DNA of 63,908 nucleotides, filler included, from Rozella allomycis CSF55 (taxonomy: Eukaryota): NCBI GenBank assembly GCA_000442015.1. It is 5 parts of 5 records of this genome, joined end to end, with 100 filler letters (N's around TTAATTAATTAA, not from the genome) between each part and the next. Parts side by side here need not be neighbours in the genome. Positions count along the whole stretch, not along the records: positions 27,339 to 59,020 come from KE561194.1; 4 more parts are not named here. One strand, written 5' to 3'. The notes beneath the pieces are model-generated. The model was given only the letters and a program-made list of their open reading frames with translations, was not told the DNA's origin and did not search any database. The number at the start of each line of letters is the position of its first letter. The stretch's first letter is position 1. This document shows positions 11,662-55,606 of this stretch, one piece after another. The translations under genes and the position numbers were made by a program.

Positions 11662-11720
11662 CTTAATGCTTTAGTAATGGCTACACATTGACTTATTGCT
11701 AATAAATTCATTTTTCATAT

Positions 11721-12380
11721 TTATTGCTTTTGAAGTGCAGAATGCAGATGTTCTTGAATTTCTTCAATATTTTCTGAACCGTAAACCATAGCAATGAAGT
11801 GGGCTAATTTATCTATTGGATATTCAACATATGCCCTAGCGCCCCAAGAGTAATAAGTTTGATCATCTATAGCACCATCCTTAATTTTCATTCTATCCAG
11901 GTAATTCTGTTTTATCAAATCTGTTAAAACTTCCGGTATCTTTTGCCCGAATTCTGTGTCTTGTGATATGTTAATATCAAGGGCATCTTCCAGAGACTTG
12001 TTTAATTCACCCTGCGACAATTTATTATCATTCAAAGCAACAAAAGCCAAAATAAAACTTATCAAGCCTACTTTAGGTAGAAATGGATACAAATTTTTAG
12101 CATCTTTATACGTTTCTTGGACAACTTCTGCATATTCTGCACTTTCCCTATTTATCAAAATAAACGAATTTTTTTTCTTGTCCGCTTTTACAAGTTCAAA
12201 ACCAAATGTTTCTTTTAGTTTGCGATTGGTTTCATCAACTAGAACGTCAAATGAGCCTCTATGGTCTTTCAGCAGTGTCTGGCGAATGATATCCTTTTTG
12301 ATTAGTTGTTTTTTGTTTTCTAAAAATATAGCATGTCTGGCAAATGCAATAGATGTATCTTCATAGTCTTCATTCGCCAT
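11721..12380 (-). CDS. NSE3: MAGE-family / Nse3 subunit of the Smc5/6 complex
   Basis: IKKDII, LKETFGFELV, SFILIN, KVGLISFILAFV, LIKQNYL and YYSWGARA MAGE motifs. Confidence 0.85.
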   Translation of the reverse strand: MANEDYEDTSIAFARHAIFLENKKQLIKKDIIRQTLLKDHRGSFDVLVDETNRKLKETFGFELVKADKKKNSFILINRESAEYAEVVQETYKDAKNLYPFLPKVGLISFILAFVALNDNKLSQGELNKSLEDALDINISQDTEFGQKIPEVLTDLIKQNYLDRMKIKDGAIDDQTYYSWGARAYVEYPIDKLAHFIAMVYGSENIEEIQEHLHSALQKQ

Positions 12381-12554
12381 TATGCACTTCGCAAAATTAC
12401 TTTTACTTTTTTAGAAAAAAGAAAAATAGGGTTAAAAGGATTATTTAAATTTTAAAATACTTAAAAAATATATAAACCATTATCACATGTTTGTGCCTTC
12501 AATTATTTAGTGGCTTCACTGATCGTTCCGAAAAGGTATATTTGTAAATTCAGT

Positions 12555-13133
12555 ATGCACATTGTCAGAATGAAACTTTTTCAGAAAGGATCATCATTTA
12601 TGAAAGAATCCCTTAGAGAATATAGTAATTTTTCAAAGTTGGTTATTCCTGCCTTTACGGACGGAAGCTGCTTAAATAATGGTCAAAAAGATACATACGC
12701 CGGTTACGCAGTCATATTTCCATTCCACAAGGATTTAAATGAACATGGCTGTATTCCTGTTAATACTAATAATAGGGCTGAAATGTTCGCAATTATAAAA
12801 GCATGCCAAATATTTGAAGAATTCGATAAAGATAAACAACATACCCTGAAAATATATACAGACTCTAAATTATGTGTGCAAACATTCAATTCTTGGATGG
12901 AAAAATGGAAAAACGAGAACTGGCAAAAGTCAACCAATGGGGCGATTCAAAATCTTGACTTTGTTCAAATAATGTATGATCTCAAAATGAGACTAGGGGA
13001 TAGAATAATTGTTAAGCATGTATTCGCGCATACAAAGGGGAAAGACTTTAAAAGTCGTTGGAATAGGAAGGCTGACGAATTGGCTAGATTGGGTGCATTG
13101 GAAACAAAAGAAAATAAATTCTTTGATTGTTGA
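12555..13133 (+). CDS. Ribonuclease H1 (catalytic domain only, intronless)
   Basis: FTDGSCLNNG, TNNRAE, IYTDS, HVFAH and WNRKADELA provide the complete DEDD set; start codon uncertain (12555/12570/12600). Confidence 0.9.
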   Translation: MHIVRMKLFQKGSSFMKESLREYSNFSKLVIPAFTDGSCLNNGQKDTYAGYAVIFPFHKDLNEHGCIPVNTNNRAEMFAIIKACQIFEEFDKDKQHTLKIYTDSKLCVQTFNSWMEKWKNENWQKSTNGAIQNLDFVQIMYDLKMRLGDRIIVKHVFAHTKGKDFKSRWNRKADELARLGALETKENKFFDC

Positions 13134-14507: not shown

Positions 14508-16092
14508 ATGACTGATGCCCAGTCGATAGACGAAACTAGATCTTTATTGAATGATGACAATAGATCGTCAAATACCTTTATATACCCAAGACCCATTTTT
14601 AAGATACTTGCCATACTATGTACTCTCCTTATTTCGTTTGGTAGCCATTATGAAAGTCACTTGTTTGCATCTTTGAAGAGTGACATTAAAAAAGTAGATC
14701 ATTTAATACACATTTCAACAGGATATGAATTTGACAAATCTTCAGTTTCATTTGTTGAGCGCTCTAGTGTCAATCCCAAACACTGTCATTCCCCTTCTCG
14801 GCGGCCTGTTCTTAGATGCTTTTGGAAGCTCCGCTGGTTCAATGCTAGCATCTTTTCTAATCTTTCTTGGTACTTCAATGAATGTGGTAGCTGTATTTAC
14901 CCGCCAATACTACTTGCTATTATCTGGTAGGTTCCTGTACGGAATTGGAGCTGGGTGTATTGTAATTATACAGGAGACTATATTGACTCACTGGTTTTAT
15001 GGTAAAAGTTTAGCGTTTGCAGTAGCATGTCAATTTACATTTTCAAGATTGGTAATTTTTTAACATCGGATCAATCTAGTCCACTTTTGTTGCGCTATCG
15101 CTATCAGAGCCTATTTCAGAGTGGACAGGATATTATGGCTATTCTATTTTAATTTCTTGCGTGCTTTGCGGCATCTCTTTCTTGTTTAATGGATTGTATT
15201 TGTTATTTGTAAAGTATTACCGAATGGGGCTATCGGAAAGAGAGCTTCAAGAGATCATGGAAAAGAAAAAAGTTGATATTAATGTATTATTCAGACTTCC
15301 ATATTATTTTTGGTTAATAACACTTGTTTCAATGCTTTTGACTTCATGTTGGAACCCCTTTATAGAAATTACGACGTAAAAATGAGCAATATGATTTAAT
15401 AGCGAATTCTTGTATCAAAAATTTAATCCCAAAGGAATTGATGTAAATTGGTCTAAAAGGGGTGTTAATTCAATGATTATTCCTGTTTTGTTGAGTACTC
15501 CAATCGGTATTATGACTGATAAATATGGAAGAAGATGTTCAAATCGTAATGAATAGAAAAGTATTAAACTAGTAATCCTCTCGGGATTTACAGCATTTTC
15601 GGGCTTTATTTTGTTGCAATATACGGAGTACCATCCCTTGATAGGCTTAATGTTGGTATCCCTAAGTTTGACCCTAGGTAATTTAAGCACTTGATTGATA
15701 AAGGTCCTGTTGCGATGATAAGTTCGATTCCCTTAATTATCCCTCTTCATGCAGTGGGCACAGCATTTGGCGTGTACAAATCATCTGCGAATATCGGAGC
15801 AGCATTAAGTCATCAAATAGTTGGGCGATTGCAGGATAACAATATGGGCAACTACGATAGGGTAATGTCTTGGTTGATAGTATGCGCATTTTTGGCAACC
15901 TTATTTTCATTTGTGTTGCTCTTTGTTGATGGAATGTATGCTTATAGATTAACAAAAACAACCAACAAATTTCGGCTGCTTGTTTCGCATTTGAGATTAG
16001 GACGAAGACCAAATAATCTTCCTCTTTATGTTTTATTAGGTTTGGCTGTTTCTGCATGGGTCATATTGATTGGATCCCTTGTAAATAAATAG
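14508..16092 (+). CDS. MFS transporter, MFSD1-like; 5 introns of 26-28 nt
   Basis: SFGSH, PNTVIPLLGGLFLD, GRFLYGIG and DKYGRR motifs; multiple hydrophobic segments. Confidence 0.85.
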
Positions 16093-16114: not shown

Positions 16115-19100
16115 TTATTTAGAATAGAATTTCTTCAAGAATGAAACTGTCTTTGAATAATTTTGCTGGTAATGCAGATTGAGCTGTTTGGCAATAACAC
16201 CAGTCATTGGTGAGCATTTTAACTGAATATTCTTGTCAACAATTATAACAGATTCAGAAACCTATTTCACATGGTGATCATTATTTTACTATAACTTCTA
16301 TTGATTTAGCTGATAGAATAAGCGAGAGAAAGCTTGCGTTTGAAACATCCATTAAGAATAGTCTAGAGGAATGCAATAGCTTGTACGCAACGAGCCACAT
16401 TTCTCTCTGGTCGTTTTCTTGCAAATATTTGTTGATAATTTCTTGTTTGATTATACTTGTTGGATGAAGAGAAATATCCGAATAAAATTTGTCGATTAAA
16501 TTAAGCTTGTTTTGCCTTGCAATAACGAAATTGGGATAAAAAGCTAATCCCAATACAAGCGCTTGTATTTTATCGTTTTGACTGCTAATGTCCAGATCTG
16601 AATCTACTTTTAAGAATTCCACCCTTTGACAAAAAAGATAACACATTTACCCCTTTTTGGTTATTGTAGTAAACGGAGTTTCTGAATACTCTTCGGCAGT
16701 AGTTAACTGCGTTGAGAGATAAATTTTAGTTTCTTCTATTAAAACCAGATCTCCATGAGAAAAAGAATTTTTTCTAGCAAAGGAAATTGGATGATCAACC
16801 CCTGTAAAATGACACTTTCTCCAAGCCCTGTAAGCATTCCAAGAGGCTATCCAATCCGAAACATCTGATCCATATTTAGCAAAAGCGATTATTTTATCAG
16901 TGAAAATACTTTTTCCGTGACTGGCGAGCGCAGCTATTGTCAAGGCAAAATCGAGACATTGGAAATCAAGAGACAAAATTAATAGTTTTGCTAGCATGAT
17001 ATCAATAGGTAATGAAGCTATTTTGCAGCCCAAGGTTGTCAGAGATTCGGCAGAGTCCAGAGCGTTAATTTGCTGTAAGGCTTCAATCGTGGCTTTTACG
17101 GAAGCATTTGATGGAGGATCTAATGATTCTTCAAGAAAGGAGCGGATATCATCAATATTCATTAGTTTAATTTTAAGACAGAGTTGTTCAAGAGGTAATC
17201 TTTTCATTTCACATTGTTGATGCTTCTTCATCTAAATTAAAGGATTGTTGAAAATATTTACTTTATCAAACGTTTTTCTAGAGTAGAGCCTGAAACAGTA
17301 ACCTTCTTGAACTCTCCCTGCTCTGCCTTTCCTTTGATTGGCATTAGCCACTGAAATAAACTTTTCTGTTAAAGATTCCACTTTAGTAAGAGCATTGTAC
17401 CTTTTAAAAATAAAAGATTTGATTACTTTATTTCTTTGCTTTTTCCAGAATCAATTACGAAAACAACGTCAGGGATTGTAACCCCTGTTTCTGCAATGTT
17501 GGTTGACAAGACAATTTTTCTGACATTTTTGGGTGGTATTTTAAAGACTTTTAAAATAAATCAAATGAAATACCAAGAGATTGTTTATTTGAGGCCAAAG
17601 CAGAATGCAAAGGTAGAATCCAAAATGACGAGGGGTCCTTTAAATAAAATAAGCTTGACTCAATTAAACTGAGTAAATTTTGAATGCTTTGCCAACCAGG
17701 CAGAAAAACAAGAATAGAGCCAGAAGTTGAACGATAAGGTTCTTCATTACAAATTACTTCAATTAAATTCAAAATCAAATCGAGATTTAAAATGCTTTCA
17801 TTGTATTTATCCAAGAAAGAATTTGATGAATCTTGAAGATTTAAACTTTCATCTGAAATTTGAAATCTTTCCATCCTTCCAGTTTGATTGTTTTTTATTT
17901 TTAACGTCGTGGATGAAGAATTTTTGAGATTTTGTTCAAAATNATGAATAATTTTTGAGATTTTGTTCAAAATTAGAATAATCAGATTTAGAAAATGGTT
18001 AATTAATTTACTTGTTTCATTTAAAATTTCATCTAAATATTTTTCATGCACGTGATACAATCGACCAGGGATTTTAAGAATTGGACATTCATTAAAATAA
18101 TTTGAAAATTTTTCAGCATCTATTGTGGCACTCATCAAGATTAATCTATAAATATTTAAAGAGATTAAATTTTACTTGAAATCAGATCTCTTAGCAATTA
18201 ATCTTTTCATCATAATCAAAAGAAAATCTACTTGCAAAATTCTTTCGTGAACTTCATCTATTATAACGCACGTGACATCCCGAAGATCCGGATCAATCTC
18301 TAATCTACGAAGTAAAACACCATTAGTGCAATACAAAAGCCTGGTAAATTCAGAATCACATTTTTCTTGTTTAATTTGATATCCAACTAACCTTCCGCAT
18401 TTAGAATCACCAACTTCTAAAGAAACTCTTTCAGCTATTGAAATTGCAGATATTCTTCTTGGTTGTGAACAAATTATATTAACATTTCTATTCTTCAAAA
18501 TTTCTTCCATTAAAATTATTTGTGGAAGCTGCGTGCTTTTTCCACTCCCTGTCATCCCTGAAACAACAATCACTTGATTCGCATTAAATTCATCAATAAT
18601 CTCCTGCCTCGCTTGGAAAATAGGCAATTCTTGTCTTTCTTTCTACAAATCTCTCAAAATGCATAAAATTACTAGAATATTTTTGTAACTTTCTAAATTT
18701 TGATTTTCATTGATAAGTCTTTTGACTTCTTCAATCGATTTCAACTTTCGATTTTGGAAATTTCTAATTTCAGAATTTTCAAATTTCTTTTTTAAAGAAA
18801 CTTTTGGTTTGTCAAACTTAAAATTTGACATTTCAGTTGAAATAAAATCAATTCTTCTTTTTTCATTTCCATCAACAACATTATCATTCTATAATCCATC
18901 ACTATGAAATTTACTTTATTATCAAACTCAATCCATAAATCTCTAAAGACTGGAGGAAGAAGATTCTTGAAAGATTTCTTTTCAGACATTATCTCATGCA
19001 ACGCGATTGTAGAAACGAAATGCTCAGCTTCCTTTTTAGTACTACAACATTCTTTTTCCATTGTAAACTCCTTGTTTATTATGCCAGTAATGACAGCCTT

Positions 19101-21911: not shown

Positions 21912-22681
21912 ATGGATGATATAGAACATGATGTAAAAATATTGATACTTGGTTCTGGTGGTGTTGGTAAATCATATGTGGAAATAAAACAGGAAAATCT
22001 AGTATAATACGTCGATACTGCTTAAATCAATATATTCCTGTTTACAAGAAGACTATTGGTGTACAGTATAACGAAGCCGATATTCATGTCCAAATGGACG
22101 GCTCTAACTATCAAATAAAGTTATTGTTATATGATGCCGCCGGTCAAGAAGATTTCAATAATGTATCCGAGCAGTATTTCAGAGATGCTCAAGCTGCAAT
22201 TTTGGTTTTCTCCACAATTGATAGGGGATCATTTGATAGTTTGCGGCGTTGGAAAAGACTACTTGATAAATCATGCCCTAATATACCTAAGGTTCTTGTT
22301 CAGAATAAAGTAGATTTGATACAAAACTCATGCATCAAACCGTAAACATTAAATCTTTGGAACACACAGTGAAGAAGTTGAATCACTTTCTATGGAATGG
22401 AACATGAAGTTGTATAGAGTTAGTGTCAAGGATGATTTTAACCTCAAAAACGGTATCTGCAGCATCGCTATGTAAATTTAGTTTTCCAGTATTTGTCTGA
22501 AGTGTTTTTGGCTGGGAAATCTAAATTGAAGACTGTTCAAAACAATGATCCTTTTGTTAAAGGCAGAAAGGAAGTTAATTTGCGGCGCCTTTCATCATCG
22601 GAGTCATCGTGCGAATCCAAGAAATTTGAAAAACAAGGGAAAACAAATAGAGTAAAATCGGACAATTGCACAATTTGTTGA
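21912..22681 (+). CDS. RAB23: Rab23 small GTPase; 3 introns
   Basis: GVGKSSIIRRYC, YKKTIGV, DAAGQEDF, LVFSTIDR.SF, VLVQNKVDL, YRVSVKDDFN and VFQYL match Rab23; C-terminal CTIC. Confidence 0.88.
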
Positions 22682-27598: not shown

Positions 27599-28672
27599 TA
27601 CATTTTGAGGTTTCTTTTATTAGACTTNATTCCGGGTGGACGGATACATTTTGATGTTTCTTTTAGACTCATTGGTTCAATCGACCATCATCACTGCCAC
27701 TTTACAAATAGCGATCTTAACATCTTAATCTTTCTATAAACTTCAATATTCATTGTTATCAACTGAAATAAGACATTTTCAGAAACTTCAATATTCATTG
27801 TTGTCAATTGAAATGAGACATTTCTCGTTGATTGATTCTTAAGCCTACCAAAGGTTGTTATCTGGATCGAAGACTTAAGTCGACAGAGCGAATTTTGTCT
27901 CCAACATTGACTTAGTTACAGAAGCCCACCAAAAGTTGTTAATTGATCATTACTACCTTCTCATGAAAAATTATTAACCAAGAATATATAATACGATAAC
28001 TTTGATCGAGAAACAGAGGGTTGCTTGATTCAACAAAGCAAATGCTTTCTCCAACGTGTGTCGCAAACTCGGTGAGGACCATGCAATTGACGTAAGGTCA
28101 ATATTAACCAATATTAACCTCAATTGTGTTAATAGAGATTTCATCAGAAGTCTTTGTCAAAAGGAAATTGTTACAATTTTTCAAACGAGCATAATAATAA
28201 AAGTTAAAATACGTAATGAGTATAGCCGTAGGTTTTCACAGTTCAAAGCTCTTTACTTGCAGGTATTCGCCAATCGAACAAATGTTTTAAAAGAGAATAT
28301 AAAATTATTTGGGCAATTTAGTTTATAGTTTAATAAATGCAATGTTTAAGTACCTGAGCAAGATCAAGATGCCGCAACCCACACAAGAGACAAATAGTTC
28401 ACACTTCACTCTTTATAAATATAAAACCGTAATAGTAATTCTCATTACTACAATAAATTGCAATACAACACTTAAATATGCATTTGAATAATCTAAATAA
28501 ATTGACAACCCCATATGAATTATTACGCTAAGCTACGCTCAGAAATCTTGTATGGCCAGGGAATTGCAAAATGTTGTTTTCTTTACGATTAATTGAAACT
28601 GGTGTTTTTGAAGTAATCATTGAGCTCAAAAGAATATTTCTATTTATAGTTCCGCAAATTAGGAAACTTGCA

Positions 28673-29566
28673 ATGTTGATTGCACTAAATTTTTTATTCT
28701 TATTCGGTTTCATAAATGGCTACATAAACTCTGTCCGGCATGTGAAATGTTCTTATCCCTCACACCAAGAGGATAACGATTGTGTAGAGCTACTAGCAAA
28801 GGTAAATGTTAAGGTATTGTATCACAAATCCATTCCTTTTGCCATCGCCCAATATTGCCAAAGTAAAATTGAGATATCATTTAGAGGAAGTATGGATTTT
28901 GATGACTGGCTAGTCAATCTTAACTTTTCCCCAACAGCAAATCAAGAAACGATTATACCCGGAAATATAGCAGTGCATTCTGGTTTTTACAAAAAGGCAA
29001 TTGAAATACTTCCAATTTTATCCAATTATCTTGAAGATAACCTTGAAATTTTACAGTCACATGCAATCATCTTTGCTGGTCACTCTCAAGGTGGAGCTCT
29101 TGCTACTGTTACAGCTATGATATTGAATGATTTTTATAATTTTAAATCTGTCGTTGTTTACACTTTTGGATGTCCCAAGATATTCTTTTCACAAGTGGAT
29201 GAATTCTGGAAATATCGCATTTTTAGGTTTGTTCTTTCAGGGGATCCAATCGTGAATATGCCACCTTTGCTTCGTCACGCAGGAAAAGAAATATTAATGG
29301 AATCACCGGAAGGGAAGTTTAGCTCTTTAAAATTGTTGAATGGCGTGGGATCTTTAGGATCTACAATATCAAATGCGATCTCAACTTTTCAAAGTCCTAA
29401 GAAAATGGAAGCCTCAGAGATATTAAAAACGTGTCTTAATACATTAAAAGAAGCCTCTGAAAAATGTAGACCTGTCACAAATGCCATCAGATCGCATAGC
29501 ATTATAGCCTACGAAAAGGGTCTAGACCTTTTTAGAGATCAAATTGAAATTCAAATCAAACAATAA
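28673..29566 (+). CDS. Secreted class-3 lipase, copy 1 (intronless)
   Basis: Signal-like N-terminus; SFRGS, VHSGF, GHSQGG, YTFGCP, DPIV..PP and C-terminal His. Confidence 0.9.
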   Translation: MLIALNFLFLFGFINGYINSVRHVKCSYPSHQEDNDCVELLAKVNVKVLYHKSIPFAIAQYCQSKIEISFRGSMDFDDWLVNLNFSPTANQETIIPGNIAVHSGFYKKAIEILPILSNYLEDNLEILQSHAIIFAGHSQGGALATVTAMILNDFYNFKSVVVYTFGCPKIFFSQVDEFWKYRIFRFVLSGDPIVNMPPLLRHAGKEILMESPEGKFSSLKLLNGVGSLGSTISNAISTFQSPKKMEASEILKTCLNTLKEASEKCRPVTNAIRSHSIIAYEKGLDLFRDQIEIQIKQ

Positions 29567-29707
29567 ATATTGATACTAATCACTATCACCATTCAAACCA
29601 TAATCACTTATCACTTATTGATTTTTCTTTGCTGACTCATTTGATGGGCGTGACAAAGTCCCTGCATATTTTGGCAGGTAACATGCTTGTGGCTGGTGTG
29701 AAAAAAG

Positions 29708-30652
29708 ATGAAAATATTTTGTTTGGCACTTATTTCCGTACTTTCTATTGTCTCATGTGAATTACTTCAGAAGTCTCTACGAAAAGTCTTGTATGCCACA
29801 CCGAAATACACAAACACCCCGGAATGTCAACACTACGTCAAAGAAACCAGATCAAAGATACTGTATCATGAAAACAAAGCTTTCGGGATGGTCCAGTCAT
29901 TTGAAGAAATGATAGAGATTACATTTCGAGGAACATACGACCTTGATGATTGGAAGATCAATTTAAGAATGAAGGAAGCAATTGCAACTAATTTAACGAA
30001 TATAAAAGTACATAAAGGTTTTTTAGAGAAAAGCATGAAATTATTGCCAATAGTGAAAAAGGCCATAAGTGACACACCGGGGTCTTCGAACAAAAAGCTC
30101 TTACTTACTGGGCATTCACAAGGAGGAGCATTAGCCATTCTAATTGGCATGGCGCTTTACTTTGAAGACAAATCCTTGAATATGAAGATTGTGACATTTG
30201 GTTGCCCAAAAATATTTTACTCTGAAATCGACAAAATATTTAACGACAAGATAACGCGAATAGAAGCTCCCCTAGATCCTGTTCCATTACTTCCTCCTTT
30301 TCTTAACCATGCCGGTAAACGTGTTGTAATTGGAGAAACACCGAACCCTTACGTTTTCTACATTGTCAAATGGGCTTCATTGATTTCATTTAGTATCATT
30401 ACACAGATGCTTAATCTCAGCACCGTCTCTAGCATAACACCGTCAATTGTAAAAATTCTCATAGAATCGAACGAGATAGAAAGTCTAAAATCAGCAAATT
30501 CCTTCATAACTGAAATGAAAATCATTTATCCAACTGCATTATACATTATTGTGTTTTTTGCCTACTCCTTAATACAATTGCTAAAAGCACATCAGACTCG
30601 ACGATACATGGCCGAATTACAGAATTCTCCGAACTTGAACATTAAATATTAA
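29708..30652 (+). CDS. Secreted class-3 lipase, copy 2 (intronless)
   Basis: Signal peptide; TFRGT, VHKGF, GHSQGG, TFGCP and DPVPLLPP. Confidence 0.9.
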   Translation: MKIFCLALISVLSIVSCELLQKSLRKVLYATPKYTNTPECQHYVKETRSKILYHENKAFGMVQSFEEMIEITFRGTYDLDDWKINLRMKEAIATNLTNIKVHKGFLEKSMKLLPIVKKAISDTPGSSNKKLLLTGHSQGGALAILIGMALYFEDKSLNMKIVTFGCPKIFYSEIDKIFNDKITRIEAPLDPVPLLPPFLNHAGKRVVIGETPNPYVFYIVKWASLISFSIITQMLNLSTVSSITPSIVKILIESNEIESLKSANSFITEMKIIYPTALYIIVFFAYSLIQLLKAHQTRRYMAELQNSPNLNIKY

Positions 30653-31700: not shown

Positions 31701-31916
31701 TAAAGGTCTAAGAAATGACACCTCATTTCAGTTTTTCTTAACTTCATAAAGGCTTGATCTTACATTTAAAATGTCAATTTTTCTTTTAACAATCGCAAAT
31801 GAATTTCATCTAATCAAAATGAATTAGATTCATCAAGTTCATCAGATGCCGATCATTTCATTGCACGAGATTTCAAAAATACAAAAAATNCGAGATTGCA
31901 AAAATACAAAAAATGT

Positions 31917-32542: not shown

Positions 32543-32774
32543 AGTTATTTGTACAGGAATTAATAGCTAGACTGCCTAGAGCTTTGATTATTGAATTATT
32601 GAGAATATAGTTTTTAATTTATATTGAGAGAAACTAAAGATTTCAAGTTAAGAAAATAAAAATCCATATTTTCTATTGAACGTTTAATAACCCGTTTACA
32701 ACATTATTTTATTTCCAATGTTCCATTTTATTACTTCCTGCTGTCTTTCCCAATCTTTTCAGGATAACCGGGGT

Positions 32775-35700
32775 ATGTCACTTTTTGAGCAAGAAGAAGA
32801 CGCATTTTCCGCGTTCCAAGTGAGTTCAACCGACTACGTGGCACCAGTTCCACTTAAGCGCGGCACTGACGAAGAGATCTATCCGTTTCCCAAGAGCGCG
32901 CGCCTGTCTAAAGCGACGCAGGTGATGGATGAGTTTTCGACGCGGGTAATTTACTGTATAATGCTTCAATATAGGTAAAATAATTTTTTCATAATTATCT
33001 AGGTAAAATAATGTGGGAGAGATGAGCAGGTTGAGCGGGAGGTGCAAGAGGGCGAGAAAAAGTCTCAGATCACGCATAGTGTGCGCCACGAGGTAGCGAT
33101 ACCTGAGGGGTTTGAGTATGTGCCTTTGAGTGAGCATGAGAGTCCGAGTGAGCCTTTTCGGAGGTATCCGTTTACGCTTGATCCGTTCCAGCAGTGTAGT
33201 GTGAGTTGTATTGAGAGGAACGAGAGTGTGTTGGTGAGTGCGCATACATCAGGTAAGGGAGATTGAGTTTTTTGAGGAGGTATTTAATGGGGATGGTGGT
33301 AATGATAGCTGGAAAGACAGTGATTGCCGAGTATGCGATTGCGATGGCGCTGAAGAAGAAGCAGCGGGTGATATATACGAGTCCGATCAAGGCTCTTAGT
33401 AACCAAAAGTACCGCGAGTTCCATCATGAGTTTGGCGATGTTGGGTTGATGACTGGAGAAGTTACGATTAACCCAACTGCGTCGTGTTTGGTGATGACGA
33501 CGGAGGTAAGAAAATAGAAAACAAGAGATAGATTTTGAGGAGTATGTTGTATAGGGGCAGTGAGGTGATGCGAGAAGTCGGATGGGTTGTGTTTGACGAG
33601 GTGCATTATATGAGAGACAAGGAGCGAGGAGTTGTTTGGGAGGAGACTCTTATCCTGTTGCCTGACCAGGTGCGGTATGTGTTCTTGTCGGCGACGATTC
33701 CGAATGCCAAGCAGTTTGCCGAGTGGATCTGTTGTGTGCACCACCAGCCGTGTCATGTGGTGTATACAGATTATAGGCCGACGCCGTTGCAGCATTATTT
33801 GTTTCCTGCTGGTGGCGATGGGATCCATTTGGCTGTAGATGAGAAGGGTGTGTTTCGGGAGGATAATTTTGTGAAAGCGTTGAGTGTGTTGGGCGATGAT
33901 ACGGTGTTGGGAGGCAAGAAGAAAAGGAAGCCTACAAAGAATGGTAAAGAGAGTGATTGAAGAGTATAGGGCCTTCTGATTTGTTTAAGATTGTGAAGAT
34001 GATAATGATGAAGAACTACCAGCCCGTTATAGTGTTTAGTTTTTCGAAAAAGGAGTGTGAGGCGAATGCGACGCAGATGTCAAAGTTGGATTTTAATGGT
34101 GAGGAGGAGAGGATGATGGTTGGCAAGATATTTAATAATGCGATGGAGGCGTTGAGTGAGGATGATAGACAGTTGGCTCAGATTGAGAATATATTACCGT
34201 TTCTGAAGAGGGGGATTGGTATCCATCATTCAGGTGAGAGAGTATGTAAAGAAAGAAAGGATTGTTACCGATATTGAAGGAGGTGATAGAGTTGTTGTTT
34301 CAGGAGGGGTTGTTGAAGGTTTTGTTTGCGACTGAGACGTTTTCGATTGGACTGAATATGCCAGCAAAGACTGTAGTGTTTACTAATTCGAGAAAGTTTG
34401 ATGGAAGGGATTTTAGATGGATTAGCAGTGGAGAGTATATCCAGATGAGTGGGAGAGCTGGAAGGAGAGGGTTGGATGATAGAGGGATTGTTATATTGAT
34501 GTTGGATGAGAAGATGGAGCCAACAGTAGCCAAGAACATGATAAAGGTAATAGCATGTAGTTGTAGTGAAGACTAGGTAAGCAAGTAGTTCTAGTGAAGA
34601 CTAGGTATTGAATTTAAATCAAATATAATAAAAGGGACAAGCTGATGCATTGAATAGTGCTTTCCATTTGAGTTANCAAGCTGATGCATTGAATAGTGCA
34701 TTCCATTTGAGTTATAATATGATATTGAATTTGATTAGAGTTGAAGTAATAGATGATTGAATGTTTGATGAAGGGGATGTCACCAGAAGATATTTTAGAG
34801 AAATCATTTTATCAATTCCAGAACAATGATTCATTGCCAAATTTGGAGAATCAGTTGAATGAGTTGATTGAAAGAAGAAAAGGATTGAAGATTGAACAAG
34901 AAGAAACAATTTCTGAATATTATGAAATAAAACAAGTAAAAGAGATTTAATATTGTAATGAAGCAATTGGAGGTGTTGAAGAAGGATTTTAAGATGATAA
35001 TTCATCATCCCACGAATATTTTACCATTTTTGCAAGTTGGCAGATTGGTTAAAATAAAGCATGAAAATGATGATTTTGGATGGGGATGTTTGGTTAATTT
35101 TATTAGAAAGAAAAAGATTGAAAAAGACAAGGGTAATCTATTACAAGTATGATGATAGAAACAAGTGAGATTTATATAATAGAAGTCTTGTTGAATTGTC
35201 AAAAGAATTCAGCTATTCCAAAGCCTTGTTTAAATGATAAAGGAGAGATGATTGTTGTTCCAGTTGTTTTGGAGAGTTTAGATGCTGTTTCTAAAGCGAG
35301 AGTTTATTTGCCAAAAGATTTAAAGAGTTATGAGAATAGGCAATCAATGTACAAGACAATTGAGCAAGTTAAAAAGAGACTAGGTAAGGAAGTGGGGGTT
35401 GTGTTTAACGTAGGTAAGAAGAAGTTAGTATAGTTAAACTAGGTAATCTATTTCTTCTCTAACATTATTATAGGTAATTCATTCTACTTTCACCTCGATG
35501 TAAGGGACTATTCCATTGTTGGATCCAGTAAAGGATATGAATATTCAAGATGAAAATTTAAAAAAATTAATAAAAAAGATGAACACGTTGGAAATTAAAT
35601 TGGAAGAAAACAAACTCTTCAATTCTCCAAATCTTTCTTCAATTTATAATTCATTTGAAGAAAAAGTTAATTTAGAAAATGAAATCAAATTAATCAAAAA

Positions 35701-36552
35701 TTTAATCAAACAAACAACGTGTATTCTTCACATGGATGAACTAAAATGCAGAAAGAGAGTTTTAAGAAGATTAGAATTCACAAGTCCATCTGATGTCATT
35801 GAAATCAAAGGTAACAGAAGTTTTGAAGGTTTCAACTTAGGTAACAGAGGTTTAAAGTTTCAACTTAGGTAACAGAGGTTGAAATAGTTAACCTCTAGGT
35901 ACCAATCATTTCAACTCATAAATTCTAGGTACAAATCATTTCAACTCTTAAATTCTAGGTACAAATCATTTCCTCTCATAAATTCTAGGTAGAGTAGCGT
36001 GCGAAATTAGCTCCGGTGATGAACTTTTATTAACTGAATTGATCTTCAACGGCGCCTTCAATGATCTCACTGTAGATCAAATAAACGCTCTCCTCTCTTG
36101 TTTTGTCTTTCAAGAAAAATCTGAAGACAATTCAAAACTAAAATCTGAATTAGCAAAACCTCTTAAACTATTACACGACACTGCCAGAAAAATAGCCCAA
36201 GTTTCAAAGGAATCAAAATTAAACATCAATGAAGAAGACTATGTTAATTCTTTCAGACCTGAATTAATGGATGTTGTTTACGCTTGGTCTCAAGTAGATG
36301 TTTCAATTTGAAATTATTTAGGGTGCAAAGTTTTCGCAGATTTGTAAAATGACTGATGTGTTTGAAGGATCTATCATTAGATGCGTTAGAAGATTGGAAG
36401 AATTGTTGAGACAAATGACTATGGCTGCTAAATCTATCGGTAACACTGAACTAGAAAATAAGTTTGCTCAAGGTATTCAATAATTGTTTCTTTCAATAGG
36501 TATCAACAAGATTAAACGTGACATTGTTTTCACCAACTCTCTCTATCTATAA
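32775..36552 (+). CDS. MTR4: Ski2-like nuclear exosome RNA helicase Mtr4; 13 introns, 5 of them composite
   Basis: [84 protein letters not shown] and C-terminal IKRDIVF..SLYL. Confidence 0.97.
32946..33029 (+). other. Composite intron of 3 GT-AG units (29+28+27 nt)
   Basis: 32946-32974, 32975-33002, 33003-33029; removing all three gives DEFSTR-VEREVQE. Confidence 0.85.
33253..33308 (+). other. Composite intron of 2 units (27+29 nt)
   Basis: 33253-33279, 33280-33308; removal restores Walker A SAHTSAGKT. Confidence 0.85.
34547..34634 (+). other. Composite intron of 3 units (30+28+30 nt)
   Basis: 34547-34576, 34577-34604, 34605-34634; restores [13 protein letters not shown]. Confidence 0.88.
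35384..35504 (+). other. Composite intron of 4 units (30+29+31+31 nt)
   Basis: 35384-35413, 35414-35442, 35443-35473, 35474-35504; restores [13 protein letters not shown]. Confidence 0.88.
35811..35988 (+). other. Composite intron of 6 units (30+28+30+30+30+30 nt)
   Basis: Units start at 35811, 35841, 35869, 35899, 35929 and 35959; restores [11 protein letters not shown]. Confidence 0.9.
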
Positions 36553-36686
36553 ATTAAGTAGTTTTAAGTATAATTAAAGAGTTTTAGCGTAATTCTGAGA
36601 ATAGTTTAAACTCTTTTTGAAATAGTTTACCCACTTCCCTTTAAAACCCACATTCTGTTGTACACAAAAATTAAAAAACTTTATTT

Positions 36687-37740
<1,054 letters not shown>

Positions 37741-39060: not shown

Positions 39061-39161
39061 TCAATAAAATAAATAAATTTGCAGATTTTCATTTTATACG
39101 ATGCTACTTTTTTTGTTGTTTATCTGAGATTTGGTGGCGCAATAATTAAGTGGCACAGCAG

Positions 39162-40094
39162 ATGCAAATATTTTCACTAGCTCTTCTTTTCTGTATCTCC
39201 AGCATATTCGCATTTGAAAATGTTTCGCGCTCTGTTAAAAATATACGATGCGCTTATCCCAAATTTTATCAGACACCGGAGTGTGTAGATTACATTCAAA
39301 CAACAAAGTCCATGGTGATGCTATACAAAACTATTCCATTTGCTCTAGTTCAATATACAGAAGTAGAACTAGAAATAGCTTTTAGAGGAAGCTCGACTGT
39401 AGATGACTGGGTTGTAAACCTCAGTTTGCTGTCTGCTGAACTCGAGCCCGCCATCATGCAAGGAAACATTACGGTTCACAGTGGGTTCTATAAAAAGTCA
39501 CTTAAACTACTGCCTTCTGTTAAAACTGCTATTAATACATTTAGGTCTATGTATCAGATTGATAGATATGTGTTTTCAGGTCATTCACAAGGAGGTGCTT
39601 TGGCTGTGATCACATCGCTGTTGGTGAAAGACTGGTTCCTGGAGCTTAACGAACACTTTAATTTTGTTGTATATACTTTTGGTTCTCCTAAATTGTTTTT
39701 TGGTGATATTTCGCAGGAAGTTCATGATAAAATCTACAGGTTCATAACCCCCAGTGACCCAGTGCCGGAGCTCCCGCCTCTTATGAACCATGGTGGCAAA
39801 GAAATAGTGCTGTCAAAATCAAAAACTACTTCAAGAGTCCTTAAAACTCTAAAGAAATTTGTGATCTCCATATCAATGGGCGTAGCGTTGAACACCGTTA
39901 CTTCATACATTAATTTTCCACCAAAGGAAAATGATAAAGATGAGAAAAAAGAACAAAGCTTGTCTAAGGTATTTAATGGAATTGCCACTGGTGTCGGTAT
40001 TGTCGCTCTTGCAAAAATGTTGATCCAAGATCATTTAACGCCGGCATATGAAAAAGCAGTCAAAAAGTTTGTTGACAGGTTAAAAATATATTAA
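39162..40094 (+). CDS. Secreted class-3 lipase, copy 3 (intronless)
   Basis: Signal peptide; AFRGS, VHSGF, GHSQGG, YTFGSP and DPVPELPP. Confidence 0.9.
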   Translation: MQIFSLALLFCISSIFAFENVSRSVKNIRCAYPKFYQTPECVDYIQTTKSMVMLYKTIPFALVQYTEVELEIAFRGSSTVDDWVVNLSLLSAELEPAIMQGNITVHSGFYKKSLKLLPSVKTAINTFRSMYQIDRYVFSGHSQGGALAVITSLLVKDWFLELNEHFNFVVYTFGSPKLFFGDISQEVHDKIYRFITPSDPVPELPPLMNHGGKEIVLSKSKTTSRVLKTLKKFVISISMGVALNTVTSYINFPPKENDKDEKKEQSLSKVFNGIATGVGIVALAKMLIQDHLTPAYEKAVKKFVDRLKIY

Positions 40095-46731: not shown

Positions 46732-46954
46732 GAAAAATAAAATTTGGGGCTTAGCAGCGACATAGAAGATACAGAAAGAAATATCATTAGCATTATCATT
46801 GATCGTTATATTATGTTCATATCTTTAATTAAATAAATTACNATTATGTTCATACCTTCAATTAAATAAATTACTTCATTTCATTGTTGTTATTTTCATT
46901 TTTAGTTGAAATATTAAATCACACTTCAAACAATGTGATTTTCCGAAATTTCCA

Positions 46955-48194
46955 ATGTCGTTCCTGTTCAAACCAAAACTAAAATCTCCACAAGACCTTG
47001 TCAAATCAACACGGGAAGCGATTATAAAGCTGGAACAGAAATCTTCAGAAAAGGTACCACTATAATCACAAGGCTATAGGCAACCGAGGAAATTTCAAAG
47101 AATCTATTTTCAATGAAATCAATATTCTACGGGGAACCAGGTATACAAACGTCTGCTATTAAATAGACTCGGAACCCTCGCCTGAAAATATGGCCAATCT
47201 CGCCGGCGAGCTCTTGTCGTCGGATCTGCTGGACTTGCTCGTTCAGAATATAGCTAAATTGGAGTTTGAAGTAGGGGCATCTTTGGTTAATTTTTAAGGC
47301 TAGGAAAGATACAGCGCAGATATACACAGCTCTGTTGAGGCGCCAAGTGGGTGTCAGATCGCCGACGTAAGAATTGTTATTCGTAAATTATAGCGTTGAA
47401 TATATTTTGGCTCACGAGAATATTTTATTCTCTTTACTAAAAGGGTAAATTGATTTTAAGGTGTATAAAGGTATGAAAATCAAGAAATCGCTTTAAATTG
47501 TGGATTAATTCTTAGAGAATGTATAAGGCATGAATCTTTGGCAAAATTAATGCTTCTTTCGCCAAGTTTTAATCAATTTTATGAATATGTTGAATTGACT
47601 ACATTCGATATCGCATCTGACGCCTTTGCGACCTTTAAGGACCTGCTAACCAAACACAAAAGTTTAGTCGCTGATTATCTTCAAAACAATTATGATTTGG
47701 TAAGATCTCAAAAAGTTTCACATGAAAGTTTTTTGAAAAATACACAACACTGTTAAATTCAAATAACTACGTTACAAAACGTCAATCTCTTAAAGTAAAG
47801 TCTGCAAATAGTTGATATAGCTTTTGGGCGAATTACTTTTAGATAGGTCAAATTTTGATATAATGACAAAATATATAAGCAGTGTTGAGAACCTAAAGTT
47901 GATGATGAATTTACTGCGCGACAAAAGCAAGAATATTCAGTTTGAGGCTTTTCATGTATTTAAGGTATAAAAAGATCTGATATATCAAAGGTATTTGTTG
48001 CAAACCCTAATAAAACAAAACCAGTTTTGGATGTCCTGTTCAAGAATCAAGAAAAATTGATTACTTTTCTAAGCAATTTTCATAATGAACGTTCTGGTAA
48101 CAACATTACTTTATAATTAAAAGATGACGAACAGTTTAACGATGAGAAAGCATATTTAATTAAGCAGATTCAGCAACTTGAAATAAGCTCTTGA
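46955..48194 (+). CDS. HYM1: Mo25/CAB39/Hym1 scaffold; 9 introns of 26-29 nt
   Basis: [60 protein letters not shown] and [15 protein letters not shown]. Confidence 0.93.
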
Positions 48195-48439: not shown

Positions 48440-48793
48440 TTAACGCCCAAGAACGTCATTACGAGTAGTTTCAGCAATAGCAAGAATGGAATCAATATGT
48501 TCGGAATTGACTTTCAAGTCTTTCATAGCATCTCCAAGAGTGCGAATGACAGTGTCAAAGTGTGCGTCAGTTAATTTCAATTTAGCATGAGCAGCTTTCA
48601 TCGATTTGCCATTGTATGGTTTTCCGCCAAGTACATGGTTGAGAAAGCTCTTTTGCATTCTTCTTTGTTTATTCATATCTGTGTTAGCGAATATAAGTGC
48701 AACCGATTCATTTTGTAGGAGTTTGGAATAAAACAGTTCGACAACAGCGTCAATTGCCTTTTCACCTCCAATTTGTTCGTATAAACTTGCCAT
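48440..48793 (-). CDS. Group I (trHbN-type) 2/2 truncated haemoglobin, copy 1
   Basis: SLYEQIGG..AVV..FY, Q..MQ..FL..VLGG..Y.G.SM..AH..L.LT..HFD pattern. Confidence 0.92.
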   Translation of the reverse strand: MASLYEQIGGEKAIDAVVELFYSKLLQNESVALIFANTDMNKQRRMQKSFLNHVLGGKPYNGKSMKAAHAKLKLTDAHFDTVIRTLGDAMKDLKVNSEHIDSILAIAETTRNDVLGR

Positions 48794-48994
48794 AGTAATT
48801 GTTACCTAGTTACGGCCAGGGTTCAATATATGGCGCCAAAATCAATGGTCTAGACTCAAAGCTCACGTGATGATTGGGAATTGATAAATAAAGAGTTTCG
48901 TATATTACGTCATAATAATATATGCATAACACATAGCAATTGTAGAGAAAACACTGGAATGATTTATTTTAAGCGATGTAAGTTGATTTATTGA

Positions 48995-49348
48995 TTAGCG
49001 TCCCAGAACATCATTACGTGTGGTCTCTGCGACAGCAAGTATAGAATCAATATGTTGTGGACTTACTTTTAATTCCTTCATTGCTTCTCCCAAAGTTCGG
49101 ATGACAGTGTCAAAGTGTGCGTCAGTCAGCTTCAATCTAGCATGCGCAGCTTTCATGGATTTGCCATTGTATGGTTTTCCGCCTAGAACATGATTGAGAA
49201 AACTTTTTTGCATTCTTCTTTGTTTATTCATGTCAGTGTTGGCGAATATGGGGATCATGGTGTCCACTTTTAACAATTTAGTGTAAAAAAGCTCAACTAC
49301 AGCATCAATCGCCTTTTCTCCTCCAATTTCGTCGTAAAGATTGGTCAT
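48995..49348 (-). CDS. Group I 2/2 truncated haemoglobin, copy 2
   Basis: Same motifs; close paralog of 48440-48793. Confidence 0.92.
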   Translation of the reverse strand: MTNLYDEIGGEKAIDAVVELFYTKLLKVDTMIPIFANTDMNKQRRMQKSFLNHVLGGKPYNGKSMKAAHARLKLTDAHFDTVIRTLGEAMKELKVSPQHIDSILAVAETTRNDVLGR

Positions 49349-49435
49349 CAGATTTAAATCAGATAGTATGCAGGGGTCACAATCATGTTCGCGCCAAATT
49401 TATAGGTTTGAAATTTGGAAATTTAAAAATCATGT

Positions 49436-51794
49436 TTATTGGAACGTTACTTTTTCTGGTGGAGTTAATGCATTCAATGATCTTTTCAACTTTTCAGACA
49501 TCAATGTCAATCCCATTTGATATGATGTATTCATCCACCTAAGTAACTCCACGCTTTCTGGTGTACCCGAATCCTTCTCTTGGGACATATTTAAAATCTG
49601 TTCCCACATTTCCATACTCGACATNAATCTGTTCCTACATTTCCATATTCGACATTGCAAACATGAGACATTCTGACAACGTCATATTTTTCAGGGACCA
49701 CGCCATTAAAGTCAACAAATGACTTTGTAATCATGTAAAGCCAACGATAAGCAATTCTTTTTGCATCTGGCTCATGATTGTAATTTATTAATGCCTTCCA
49801 TGCCATGATTTGATGCGGCGCCCATCCTAAAATACAAATATGAAATCTCTTCTACCGAATGGATAATCCCATTGTCTGTTTGGACGAGAAAGACCAACTT
49901 CACCACGGGATTTTTCAGTTCCACATACAAGGCCTCCCTTAAACTCAAACATATCCAATGATGTTTTTCTTATTATAAAGATTCGAAAATATCTTACATG
50001 ACCCTTTCAGCTCTTTCTTGAGTAGTTAATCCAGCCCAAAGAGGCCATAAAGTAGTAACAGATTCGTAAACTTCTTGTTGTTTTGTTTTAATATTGTAAT
50101 CAAAATATATACCCTTTTCTTCATTCCACAGATATTTTTCAAATAATTCTTTTCTCCTCTCAGCCTTTTCAAACCAATCCTTTGACGTCTCAACAGTTCC
50201 ATCAATAGACCATTTAGAATCACAATGATCTTGAATAAAAGTGGCAATATCTACTTCATATTTGTAGAGAAGCGAATTCAAGTCAACAGTGCACAGATTA
50301 GCACATTTTCCATCTAATCGATAAGTGGTATCATGCCCAGATTCTCTAACAGAGCGGTCATGCACAAAGTATGAATCAAGTTCAGGTTCAGATATTGTAC
50401 CATTGTTATACAAATTTGAATATGTGTGAATATCGACACCCAGCTTTTCTGCAAAGGGTGCGAGAATGACATTAAAGTGAGATGGCTCTGTTTCAGGTGG
50501 CATACCAATCCCTTCACTACGATAAAGAGATAACCCAGTTTCTGACATTCGTGGTGATGATGTCCAAACTTTCTTGTACTCTTTAATCGCCGCTTTCATA
50601 GCCTCCTTCAACCACTCAAGATTTTCGGGTGTTTTTGGAAGGTTATTATACACTGATAATGCCATATCAGTCAAAAAGGGGGGTTGAGAACGAGTGAGAT
50701 AGTAACTTCGATTTGCATTTAGTATTTTTCCGTAATGTTCAATTTCATATATGAAGTTTTCAACCATCGATTTTGCCAAATCAGTGTACCCATCGATCAT
50801 TAATCCCAATGCTTCAAAATAACTATCCCAACCATACATTTCATTAAATCTCCCACCAGGAACAACAAATTTGTTCGCTTTAACAATCCTTTCGCCTGTC
50901 TCTTCATTAATAGATTCAGTCAACTTGAGAGTCAATATTCCAGGTTTGTCATTCAATGATTTTACATACTCTGGTGTAATCTCTTTAGGCAACTTGATAA
51001 CCTCCAATTGAAACTCTTTATGTTTAGCTGCAAAATGAATAAAATAATCCAACGCTAAACTGTCATCATAAGGTACATATATTCTGGGATCATGTCTTTT
51101 AAAACTCCTATCTTTGGGATCTAACAGAATCAATTTCAACCCTTGTTCATCAATNTAAAGTAATCCAACGCCAAACTATCATCATGAGGCACATATATTC
51201 TGGGATCATGTCTTTTAAAGCTCCTATCTTTGGGATCTAACAGAATCAATTTCAACCCTTGTTCATCAATACAGCGTGTAAGAGATGGCCAAAATAATTC
51301 TTTAATCATCCTAGAGAGTCTATTGACTGGTGGTTCATATAACTTTGACTCGTCAAACGTCAGATGCTTAATTCCTTTTTCCGATGCCAATGCAAGCTCT
51401 TGCAGCAAACTTGATATAGGATAAGTACCCCTCACTTCATATTTTTTGTGGCCTTTAGATACAGCACTTGCTAATTTCATGACCTTCGGGCCAGAATCCT
51501 CAATGGTAACCTGTAACAATAGTATCAAATCAGTACTTGATTGTTCAGGTCGGTGTCTTCCTGTTGCAATAGCAATGTCTTCATATTTTCTACATCAACC
51601 ATAAATTGTCTTGGATGTGAGCTTTTTTCATCAATGGATGCTCTTCTTCTTAGCATTTTAAAATCCTCTTTAGGAATAGGGTTACCCGATAAAAAGATGT
51701 CGTGATCCTAACAAAAATTGTTTTACGGATTTACATGACTCAATGTTCGATCTCTTCTTGTTGTTCTCTTGCGTCCTGAAGAATCGCCTTCCAT
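49436..51794 (-). CDS. NTH1: Neutral trehalase (GH37 with Ca-binding N-terminal segment); about 5 introns and two n-joint overlaps
   Basis: RRRAS PKA site, [50 protein letters not shown] and EGFGWMN. Confidence 0.95.
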
Positions 51795-54426: not shown

Positions 54427-55606
54427 ATGGATGGATTTGTGGGGCGCTTGACGCAAGAGCAGAATCAGAAACTGATGGAAATGTGGAAGATCATCATAGA
54501 CATGGGAAAATGTAATATCAATGATCCTCCAAAAGTGGATGTGTCAAAAAGAAGAGGTATTAAAGCCTTGTTAGGGAAGAAAAGAGCATCTAGCAATTCT
54601 TTAGTAAAAGAGAATGATTTTGATTTGTTATTTGAACTATTTCTTGCATTTGCGACCGACGATCCCGACTCGCTTATTTTAAGATTCTTGAGGGCACGAA
54701 AGTGGGATGTTAACAAAGGCGTTGAAATGCTTCTAAACGCATTAAAATGTAAATATAAAATCATATTAAAATCAAGGGAGGGCGCAGATGGACATTCCAC
54801 AATTATTGGCGGGTGGAGAAAGGGATTTGGGAAAACAAATCGAAAGTGGAAAGTTTTTTGTGTTTGGAAAAGATAAAATGGGCAATTTAGTATCGTAAGG
54901 TTCAATTAGGCGTTTTTGATAAAAAGTTACACAAGAGTTAAGCTGCATGATAAAAATGCACAATCTCAAGAGGACAGCGAGAAGTTCACAGTTTACTACA
55001 CAGAATCAGTTAGGAGGATTCTTCCAAAAGGTCACGAGAAAATAACACTGGTATTTGATTTAACAGATTTTACTATGAATAGCATGGTATTACAGCATTT
55101 TTGTAAAAATTTAGGATTATCAGATGGTCAAGTTTTTAGTTACTTGCTTTGAAGCATATTATCCAGAGTCATTGCATCAATGTCTTGTAGTTAATGCACC
55201 TTGGATATTTTGGGGCTGCTGGAAGATTATAAAGCCATGGATTGATCCGATCATTTGTGAAAAAATAAAGTTTCTCAAGAGTTACTCCGAATTAGTAGAA
55301 TTCATTGATGTTGATCAAATACCAAAATATTTTGGTGGAGAAAATCCATACGAATTCAAATATGACGAATTTAGGGGCGAATCGCAATCAATGCCTGAAG
55401 ACAAAGTCAATGAAACAAATTCAAAATTTGACACGCTAAGGGATTCATTTGTGGAGACTACACTGAAATTAATAAATGATCCTAATAATCAAAATCTAAC
55501 GTTGGAAAGAAACAAGTTGAAGGAACAGATACAAAGTTTGAATGCCTACATCGAATCATTTTATCCCAAATCAATTTTTCAAAGGTCAAATATTTCTATT
55601 AAATAA
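54427..55606 (+). CDS. CRAL-TRIO/Sec14-family lipid transfer protein (Csr1-like); 3 introns
   Basis: PDSLILRFLRARKWDV, LVFDLTDFTMNSMDYQMVKFL..FEAYYPESL and IPKYFGG. Confidence 0.9.

Follow-up and report, generated by a model that had tools for sequence, protein, structure and literature searches.

Is the intervening sequence of 121 nucleotides (nt) at positions 35384 to 35504 in the Mtr4/SKIV2L2 RNA helicase gene of Rozella allomycis CSF55 a single intron, or does it consist of several? The window, i.e., the whole stretch of DNA that was analyzed, spans 63,908 nt (64 kb) and combines five parts of five records of the genome assembly GCA_000442015.1, joined end to end with filler; all coordinates below count along it. 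The sequence in question, referred to here as the focal array, is divided by three internal TAG|GTAA junctions into four units of about 30 nt. It probably represents four minimal, autonomous U2-type (GT-AG) introns arranged in tandem and separated by zero-length exons, each of which would be spliced alone.

Anatomy of the focal array

The array and its units have the following positions and features (splice site scores, in bits, come from the model described further below).

35384..35504 (+), focal array: four abutting predicted mini-introns (121 nt together) in phase 1; the Gly codon that they split reads G|GG.
35384..35413 (+), unit 1 (U1): 30 nt, GTAAGG...TTTAACGTAG, purine fraction 0.67; 5' splice site (5'ss) 5.5 bits, 3' splice site (3'ss) 3.3 bits.
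35414..35442 (+), unit 2 (U2): 29 nt, GTAAGA...GTTAAACTAG, purine fraction 0.69; 5'ss 6.1 bits, 3'ss 6.1 bits.
35443..35473 (+), unit 3 (U3): 31 nt, GTAATC...CTCTAAC...TATAG, purine fraction 0.35; 5'ss 5.4 bits, 3'ss 6.6 bits.
35474..35504 (+), unit 4 (U4): 31 nt, GTAATT...GATGTAAG, purine fraction 0.39, acceptor AAG; 5'ss 7.2 bits, 3'ss 2.0 bits.

Reading and tiling the sequence confirmed what an earlier sequence-only reading of this DNA had reported: four units of 30, 29, 31, and 31 nt, of which the first two are purine-rich and the last two pyrimidine-rich, joined by three identical TAG|GTAA junctions. In full, these junctions are GTAG|GTAAGA (35413/35414), CTAG|GTAATC (35442/35443), and ATAG|GTAATT (35473/35474). 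All four units start with GTAA, and the 5' boundary of the array, CTAG|GTAAGG, has the TAG|GTAA form as well. At the 3' boundary, GTAAG|GGACT, U4 ends in AAG and not in TAG, the ending of U1 to U3.

The interiors of the units were compared after removal of GTAA and NAG, with 820 pairings between unrelated introns of other genes as the null set. The similarity between U1 and U2 is reached or surpassed by 23% of these pairs and that between U3 and U4 by 14%; for the four cross pairs (U1 or U2 versus U3 or U4), more than 99% of the null pairs score at least as high. The interiors are as unlike as those of unrelated introns. A TTAAC/TTAAAC-type motif immediately before the junction is common to U1 and U2, and the first ~10 nt are common to U3 and U4; the claim that the units share almost no internal sequence is therefore correct, although "none" would not be.

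A plain tandem repeat (minisatellite) was considered for the focal array and rejected, as the earlier reading had also done for a simple recent repeat: unit similarity is not above the null, and Tandem Repeats Finder does not report the array. A repeat search of the focal array found only junction-centered direct repeats of 9 to 13 nt and no inverted repeat. Sequence similarity of the minisatellite kind does hold for parts of two other arrays of the same gene, arrays C and E (see below).

The junction pattern of the focal array is beyond chance. TAGGTAA occurs 13 times in the window, versus 6.2 times expected from shuffles, and 9 of the 13 occurrences are in the Mtr4 gene; four of them within ~125 nt have a Poisson probability of ~6e-11. 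Chains of at least four AGGT[AG] junctions spaced by 24 to 33 nt were absent from all 200 Markov shuffles of the window, 5 of which reached three junctions.

The host gene and its reading frame

The focal array lies between two exons of a gene with the following layout.

32775..36552 (+), gene for the Mtr4/SKIV2L2 exosome RNA helicase, from ATG to a TAA stop: 13 intron positions, 26 intron units.
35170..35383 (+), upstream exon (Mtr4 arch/beta-barrel), ending AAG AGA CTA G: positions 46-137 of the MTR4_beta-barrel hidden Markov model (HMM).
35505..35810 (+), downstream exon, starting GG ACT ATT CCA (G-T-I-P-L-L-D-P): positions 137-202 of the MTR4_beta-barrel HMM.
33506..33531 (26 nt), 33944-33969, 34234-34259, 34746-34773, 34936-34963, 36294-36321, and 36473-36499 (+), single introns.
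35133-35158 (26 nt) or 35147-35169 (23 nt) (+), single intron with an ambiguous boundary, which leaves the focal array unaffected.

Successive open reading frames (ORFs) of this gene match the Pfam domains DEAD, Helicase_C, MTR4_beta-barrel, and DSHCT. Two partial models from R. allomycis CSF55, P0003 and P0124, are 100% identical to exons of the window: P0003 matches the translation of an exon of 138 amino acids (aa), and P0124, which is named Skiv2l2, matches the exon immediately 3' of the focal array. Removal of the 13 intervening segments results in a stop-free Mtr4 ORF, from MSLFE to TNSLYL, of 1012 aa, a count that takes in a 13-aa assembly duplication with one X. The spliced protein is identical to P0124 in 295 of 295 columns (100%) and shows 60.8% identity over 993 alignment columns to Mtr4 from Batrachochytrium salamandrivorans (P0022). 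At the focal array itself, removal of the 121 nt produces the same protein join as in P0124, colinear with other fungal Mtr4 proteins.

Because the ORF is stop-free and conserved after splicing, the Mtr4 gene is live and every unit has to be removed: an intact ORF requires that all 121 nt go. Retention of one or more units truncates the ORF at aa 747 to 777 in 14 of the 15 possible patterns. Retention of U2 truncates it at aa 747 and that of U3 truncates it too; the sole in-frame pattern, retention of U1 alone, adds 10 aa. The frame is restored by the sum of the four units, which have no exon between them by which each could be judged singly.

At one of the single introns, 33944-33969 (+), the P0003 model reads KNGKERPSDLF, implying a 17-nt intron at 33953-33969. 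The 26-nt intron listed above gives KNGGPSDLF, which is closer to other fungal Mtr4 proteins. Tiny introns may be a source of systematic error in the gene models of this organism.

Ultra-short introns in the window

Single introns were resolved by joining neighboring ORFs via GT..AG candidates, guided by Pfam frames. All 54 introns obtained in this way (46 in other genes and 8 in Mtr4) are 23 to 32 nt long, with a mode of 26 to 28 nt, and 47 of them fall between 26 and 29 nt. Examples are listed here.

9530-9556, 15052-15079, 18889-18914 (-), 22342-22369, and 57653-57678 (-), single introns.

No simple intron longer than 32 nt is found among these 54, in a window where some genes are less than fully modeled. 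Three suspicious long gaps, in the CRAL-TRIO, Ras, and DHX helicase genes, each resolved into tiny introns on a spot check; the automated list of "long intron" candidates is insufficient alone to exclude long simple introns. A generic search for ORF-bridging GT..AG pairs (18 to 300 nt, with control dinucleotides) was too noisy for a length distribution and was replaced by the joining of ORF pairs. The shortest intron in the window, if real, is a 20-nt candidate at 54890-54909 (+), GTATCG...AATTAG, which links the CRAL_TRIO_N and CRAL_TRIO ORFs.

The Rozella genome belongs to the ultra-short-intron class. Such introns seem to be barely documented for this organism: two introns of ~30 nt in the Rozella S23 gene are the subject of a passing remark in the available text of Whelan et al. 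(PMC6349667), and no other published Rozella intron sizes were found in the open-access literature.

Splice sites were scored with a position weight matrix trained solely on 41 introns of other genes, for which the leave-one-out range is 6.0±1.7 bits at the 5'ss and 4.6±1.6 bits at the 3'ss. The donor is GTA in all 41 training introns and the acceptor is [T/A/C]AG, with AAG, the acceptor of U4, in 18 of the 41. Each of the focal units has GT...AG ends, an extended donor GTA[A/T], and an acceptor of the [T/A/C]AG type; they score 5.4 to 7.2 bits at the 5'ss and 2.0 to 6.6 bits at the 3'ss, within the range of the training introns and at the 91st to 98th percentile of 2532 GT..AG decoys. Their lengths, 29 to 31 nt, are inside the range of the resolved single introns. 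Words of the TTAA/TTTAA type are enriched in the 3' parts of other-gene introns, and branch-like motifs are found in U1 (TTTAAC), U2 (TTAAAC), and U3 (CTAAC, 11 nt from the 3' end).

Judging by length and splice signals, each focal unit looks like an ordinary intron of this genome. The sequence-only reading had treated the units as elements that each need to be spliced; their lengths and splice site scores, and an ORF that is intact only without the 121 nt, speak for this, with the splicing itself as the predicted part of the claim.

Other arrays of abutting units

The window contains six arrays in total, five in the Mtr4 gene and a probable one in the adjacent gene for a protein with FHA and forkhead domains. 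Those other than the focal array are as follows.

32946..33029 (+), array A, in Mtr4: three units (29, 28, and 27 nt) that abut.
33253..33308 (+), array B, in Mtr4: two units (27 and 29 nt) that abut within the Walker A region (HTS|AGKT).
34547..34634 (+), array C, in Mtr4: three units (30, 28, and 30 nt), of which the first and second are near-identical copies.
35811..35988 (+), array E: six units of 30, 28, 30, 30, 30, and 30 nt, in Mtr4.
37449..37504 (-), probable array of two units (28 + 28 nt) in the neighboring convergent FHA-forkhead gene, splitting the FHA domain.

Array E is made of two families of three related copies each, the first purine-rich and the second pyrimidine-rich, and its removal leads to the join EIKG|RVACE, matching P0124. 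In the FHA-forkhead gene, the next exon reads through only once the 56 nt at 37449-37504 are removed. The continuity of the FHA domain is read from translations and from the FHA motif; a Pfam scan of the 29-aa exon, which is too short, was empty.

The 20 units of the six arrays are 27 to 31 nt long. Some of them are evidently related: the similarities within C1-C2, E1-E2, and E4-E5-E6 are each reached by none of the 820 null pairs and that of E2-E3 by 0.4% of them. This pattern indicates recent whole-unit duplication in arrays C and E, and because these arrays hold near-identical units, unit duplication appears to be ongoing. The focal array, by comparison, looks like either an old duplication product or an assembly of unrelated units.

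Three further chains of junctions were examined as arrays and rejected. The chain at 47965-47990 (+) comprises one 26-nt intron, after which the sequence is coding (VFVANPNK). Those at 60344-60367 and 61427-61476 (-) lie within a duplicated segment of 359 nt and have no supporting ORF evidence.

Signs of constraint on the junctions

All 14 internal AG|GT junctions of the six arrays are intact, and 7 of them separate units without detectable similarity. The alignments of the recent copies comprise 90 columns; 20 of these are variable, and none of the variable ones belongs to the 18 GTA/TAG columns (hypergeometric p = 0.006). At the junctions resolved in the window, neither a composite intron whose junction has decayed nor a long intron lacking AG|GT junctions was found. 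From these indirect signs, we infer that the junctions and the unit length are under purifying selection.

An upstream exon ending in AG is seen for 5 of the 6 arrays but for only 8 of the 54 single introns (Fisher p = 0.0012). Of the exons that follow the 6 arrays, 4 have G as their first nucleotide. An AG exon end before the arrays fits duplication on (T)AG|GTA microhomology or the need for a good regenerated donor.

Proposed removal and growth of the arrays

In the proposed mechanism, introns would be recognized across the intron at a nearly fixed size of ~26 to 30 nt, such that the nearest donor, branch site, and acceptor define each 29- to 31-nt unit. The units would be excised one at a time, as two spliceosomes are probably unable to occupy adjacent 30-nt units. 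Excision of any unit would rejoin ...AG to GTAA... and regenerate a normal junction; the order of removal would therefore be free, with the same final mRNA. Formally, this would amount to recursive splicing through ratchet points, or zero-length exons.

Most likely, an array becomes longer when exactly one intron unit is duplicated; the (T)AG|GTA microhomology on either side of a unit could mediate this by slippage or by unequal exchange. The copies would then drift in their interiors, and selection would hold the splice signals and the unit length, since failure to splice any unit would shift the frame of an essential protein or truncate it.

A bolder version of the model is tentative and, on balance, doubtful. 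It holds that the Rozella spliceosome has an effective upper limit of ~32 nt, that longer spacers exist only as serially removed concatemers of minimal introns, and that the intron load of Mtr4 acts as a kinetic sensor. The arrays would then expand and contract by slippage of whole units and would be a live example of intron birth by whole-intron duplication at the same site. Mtr4 is the helicase of the nuclear exosome that, in yeast work, helps destroy unspliced pre-mRNA and excised introns. The load of this gene (26 units at 13 positions, including five arrays) might couple Mtr4 expression to splicing and surveillance capacity.

Alternative explanations

Several observations weigh against four separately spliced introns. 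Removal of the 121 nt in one step gives the same mRNA, and P0124 models the stretch in this way. The branch-like candidates of U4 are weaker than those of U1 to U3. The mean length of array units exceeds that of single introns by 1.6 nt (29.1 versus 27.6 nt; p = 7e-4 with copies collapsed), which could mean that the two are handled somewhat differently. The arrays are confined to two adjacent genes, with none in the other genes (~46 introns), a hint that mutation acting locally, and not a rule of wider validity, may be behind them. The intron catalogue is a hand-curated joining of ORFs in one 64-kb window, in which a rare long simple intron could be missed. Finally, retention of the junctions while the interiors diverged is an assumption, and the focal units were maybe never homologous.

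According to the first alternative, the stretch is an ordinary intron of 121 nt that is excised at once, with the donor at 35384 and the acceptor at 35504, and the internal TAG|GTAA sites are unselected leftovers of how the sequence arose (duplication or insertion of mini-introns), unused or used only incidentally. Besides its agreement with the public gene model, it leads to the correct protein from an outer donor (GTAAGG) and an outer acceptor (AAG) that score well themselves, and the recent duplication in arrays C and E implies that such a structure can arise without functional need. This explanation is nevertheless unlikely, given a set of 54 resolved introns with no simple one above 32 nt and internal junctions that are intact in 14 cases out of 14, half of them between units that retain no residual similarity. 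Moreover, the internal sites score like those of real introns, and a spliceosome that pairs the nearest sites should use them anyway.

The second alternative concerns the origin of the array and not its present mechanism. The units might never have been copies of each other, having arisen by serial insertion of unrelated mini-introns at one AG|GT (reverse splicing, introner-like) or by subdivision of a long intron through new AG|GT sites; the latter version ties to machinery specializing for ~27-nt introns. Unit interiors that differ as much as those of unrelated introns are what it would predict, and the AG before 5 of the 6 arrays and the G after 4 of the 6 resemble a proto-splice site. The pyrimidine-rich 3' half of the focal array may likewise be compared to the 3' part of a conventional longer intron, and in the available text of Ag et al. 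(2020, PMC7138796), complex introns are proposed to arise from new splice sites inside an existing intron. Against this origin, unit duplication does occur in sister arrays of the same gene, and in the 64-kb window no unit has a close or significant relative outside its own array, the best outside partners being reached by 1 to 14% of null pairs; neither a donor intron nor a dispersed, introner-like family is therefore seen there. An origin without copying seems improbable.

Yet another possibility is a structured long intron, in which the purine-rich U1 and U2 would pair with the pyrimidine-rich U3 and U4, draw the outer sites to within the distance of a mini-intron, and let the whole element be removed at once. 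Both the minimum free energy and the centroid folds nest U1 (positions 5-13) with U4 and U2 with U3, and array E, which also runs from purine to pyrimidine, folds somewhat better than its shuffles (z = -1.89; 8 of 200 as good). The focal fold, in contrast, is no more stable than shuffled sequences (z = +0.19; 109 of 200 as good), there is no inverted repeat, and in reverse complement the units resemble one another no more than null pairs do. Since the purine-to-pyrimidine pattern is also missing from arrays A, B, and C and from the FHA array, and the periodic complete internal splice sites would be left unexplained, such a hairpin is very improbable. An intron-encoded small RNA was considered as well and is unlikely, with no Rfam matches at E <= 1 in the region 32600-36700.

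An assembly error or a decaying pseudogene is scarcely credible: many two-copy tandem duplications around a single N are found in the assembly, one of them (34637-34714) inside Mtr4, but no N lies in or beside any array, the focal units are not mutual copies and so cannot stem from a mis-join, the spliced gene is full-length, conserved, and stop-free, and the same exon junction is present in an independent public model, which is based on a different assembly of this strain.

Other features of the window

Two-copy duplications of 25 to 359 nt, 87 to 97% identical and with a single N at the join, are found at 17913-17982, 31866-31914, 34637-34714, 46806-46874, 49595-49655, and 58692-58770 and also at 1399-1621, 7364-7582, 51040-51270, and 59502-60211. 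They look like unmerged overlaps at contig joins, i.e., assembly artefacts, and the one at 34637-34714 puts 13 spurious codons into Mtr4. Tandem repeats of ~31 nt at 17913, 46806, 49595, and 58692, which had been candidates for further arrays, belong to these two-copy duplications around a single N and were discarded.

The segment 32000-37800 has a G+C content of 0.41 to 0.44, versus ~0.33 to 0.35 elsewhere in the window. Its coding strand has far more G than C, with a GC skew of +0.22 to +0.39. This bias is common to the exons and introns of the 5' two-thirds of Mtr4 and of the forkhead gene; the 3' third of Mtr4 is AT-rich. Both array-bearing genes are located exactly in this segment of unusual composition.

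The window also encodes several local gene families, namely, three class-3 lipase ORFs, two bacterial-like globin ORFs, and two RNase H ORFs, as well as a retroviral-type SH3 fragment at its start.

28532-30649, 39150-40091 (+); 48443-49399 (-); 10996-13130 (+); 213-686 (+), regions of the local gene families and of the SH3 fragment.

Comparison with known splicing systems

Genomes with ultra-short introns include those of Paramecium and Nyctotherus (~25 nt) as well as those of dicyemids, myxozoans, and microsporidia (PMC13644364, available text). Rozella resembles them in the narrow length distribution centered below 30 nt, the GTA...AG ends, and retention that mostly causes a frameshift or a stop. 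Abutting introns without exons between them were not found described for such genomes in the accessible portions of the open-access literature, nor did that literature yield a description of tandem, back-to-back, stacked, or concatenated minimal introns. The arrays suggest that Rozella removes longer spacers piece by piece. If this is true, a tiny-intron spliceosome would handle longer spacers by concatenation and not by stretching, and it would have an upper as well as a lower length bound. Gene finders treat the arrays as single long introns or mis-splice them, and the reported counts and lengths of Rozella introns are probably distorted.

The ratchet points of Drosophila are preceded by pyrimidine tracts and subdivide introns of great length; recursive splicing at such points was reportedly described in work on the Ubx gene. 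As in recursive splicing, the acceptor in the focal array abuts a donor (AG|GTAAG) within what is annotated as a single intron, removal of the upstream part would regenerate the donor, and the mRNA would keep no trace of the predicted stepwise process. The term "ratchet point" used in the sequence-only reading is apt for the juxtaposed 3' and 5' splice sites and less so for their setting, which is far from the long Drosophila introns with their pyrimidine tracts: U1 and U2 are 67 to 69% purine, and no such tract precedes the first two focal junctions.

Recursive splicing at ratchet points is known from long Drosophila introns and from long vertebrate genes (PMC8605326, available text). In a fungus, recursive splicing across a zero-nucleotide exon has been demonstrated experimentally for Cryptococcus neoformans BOT1, whose 375-nt intron is removed as 210 + 165 nt according to the accessible text of the preprint (bioRxiv 10.1101/224170). 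The focal stretch differs from these hosts in size (121 nt, versus tens of kilobases for ratchet-point introns and 375 nt for BOT1) and in having three consecutive junctions ~30 nt apart, a number that rises to five in array E. Furthermore, its units have the standard intron size of the genome, and their removal need not proceed from 5' to 3'. If each unit is indeed spliced alone, these arrays would represent the smallest-scale natural recursive splicing yet described, with zero-length exons every ~30 nt and as many as six consecutive introns.

Stwintrons and complex intervening sequences, studied by Flipphi, Fekete, and co-workers, likewise are fungal intervening sequences that consist of more than one U2 intron and are removed by consecutive splicing reactions. 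Their proposed origin, in the portions of the source available, is from duplicated splice elements or from new sites within an intron (PMC7138796). Stwintrons are nested: a donor, branch, or acceptor element of the external intron is interrupted by the internal one, which makes the order of their removal obligatory. The focal units, in contrast, abut with no element split, and both the GTAA... at the start and the ...AG at the end are complete in each of them; they do not form a stwintron.

The model attributed to Rogers reportedly explains intron gain by tandem duplication of an AGGT-containing segment. The arrays resemble this scheme in that duplication of AGGT yields a donor/acceptor pair and that microhomology is found at the unit ends. 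In Rogers' model, it is exon sequence that is copied into a first intron, whereas here a whole existing intron has seemingly been duplicated at the same position. The near-identical units of the sister arrays would then represent intron multiplication by whole-intron duplication in progress, which bears on the question of where introns come from.

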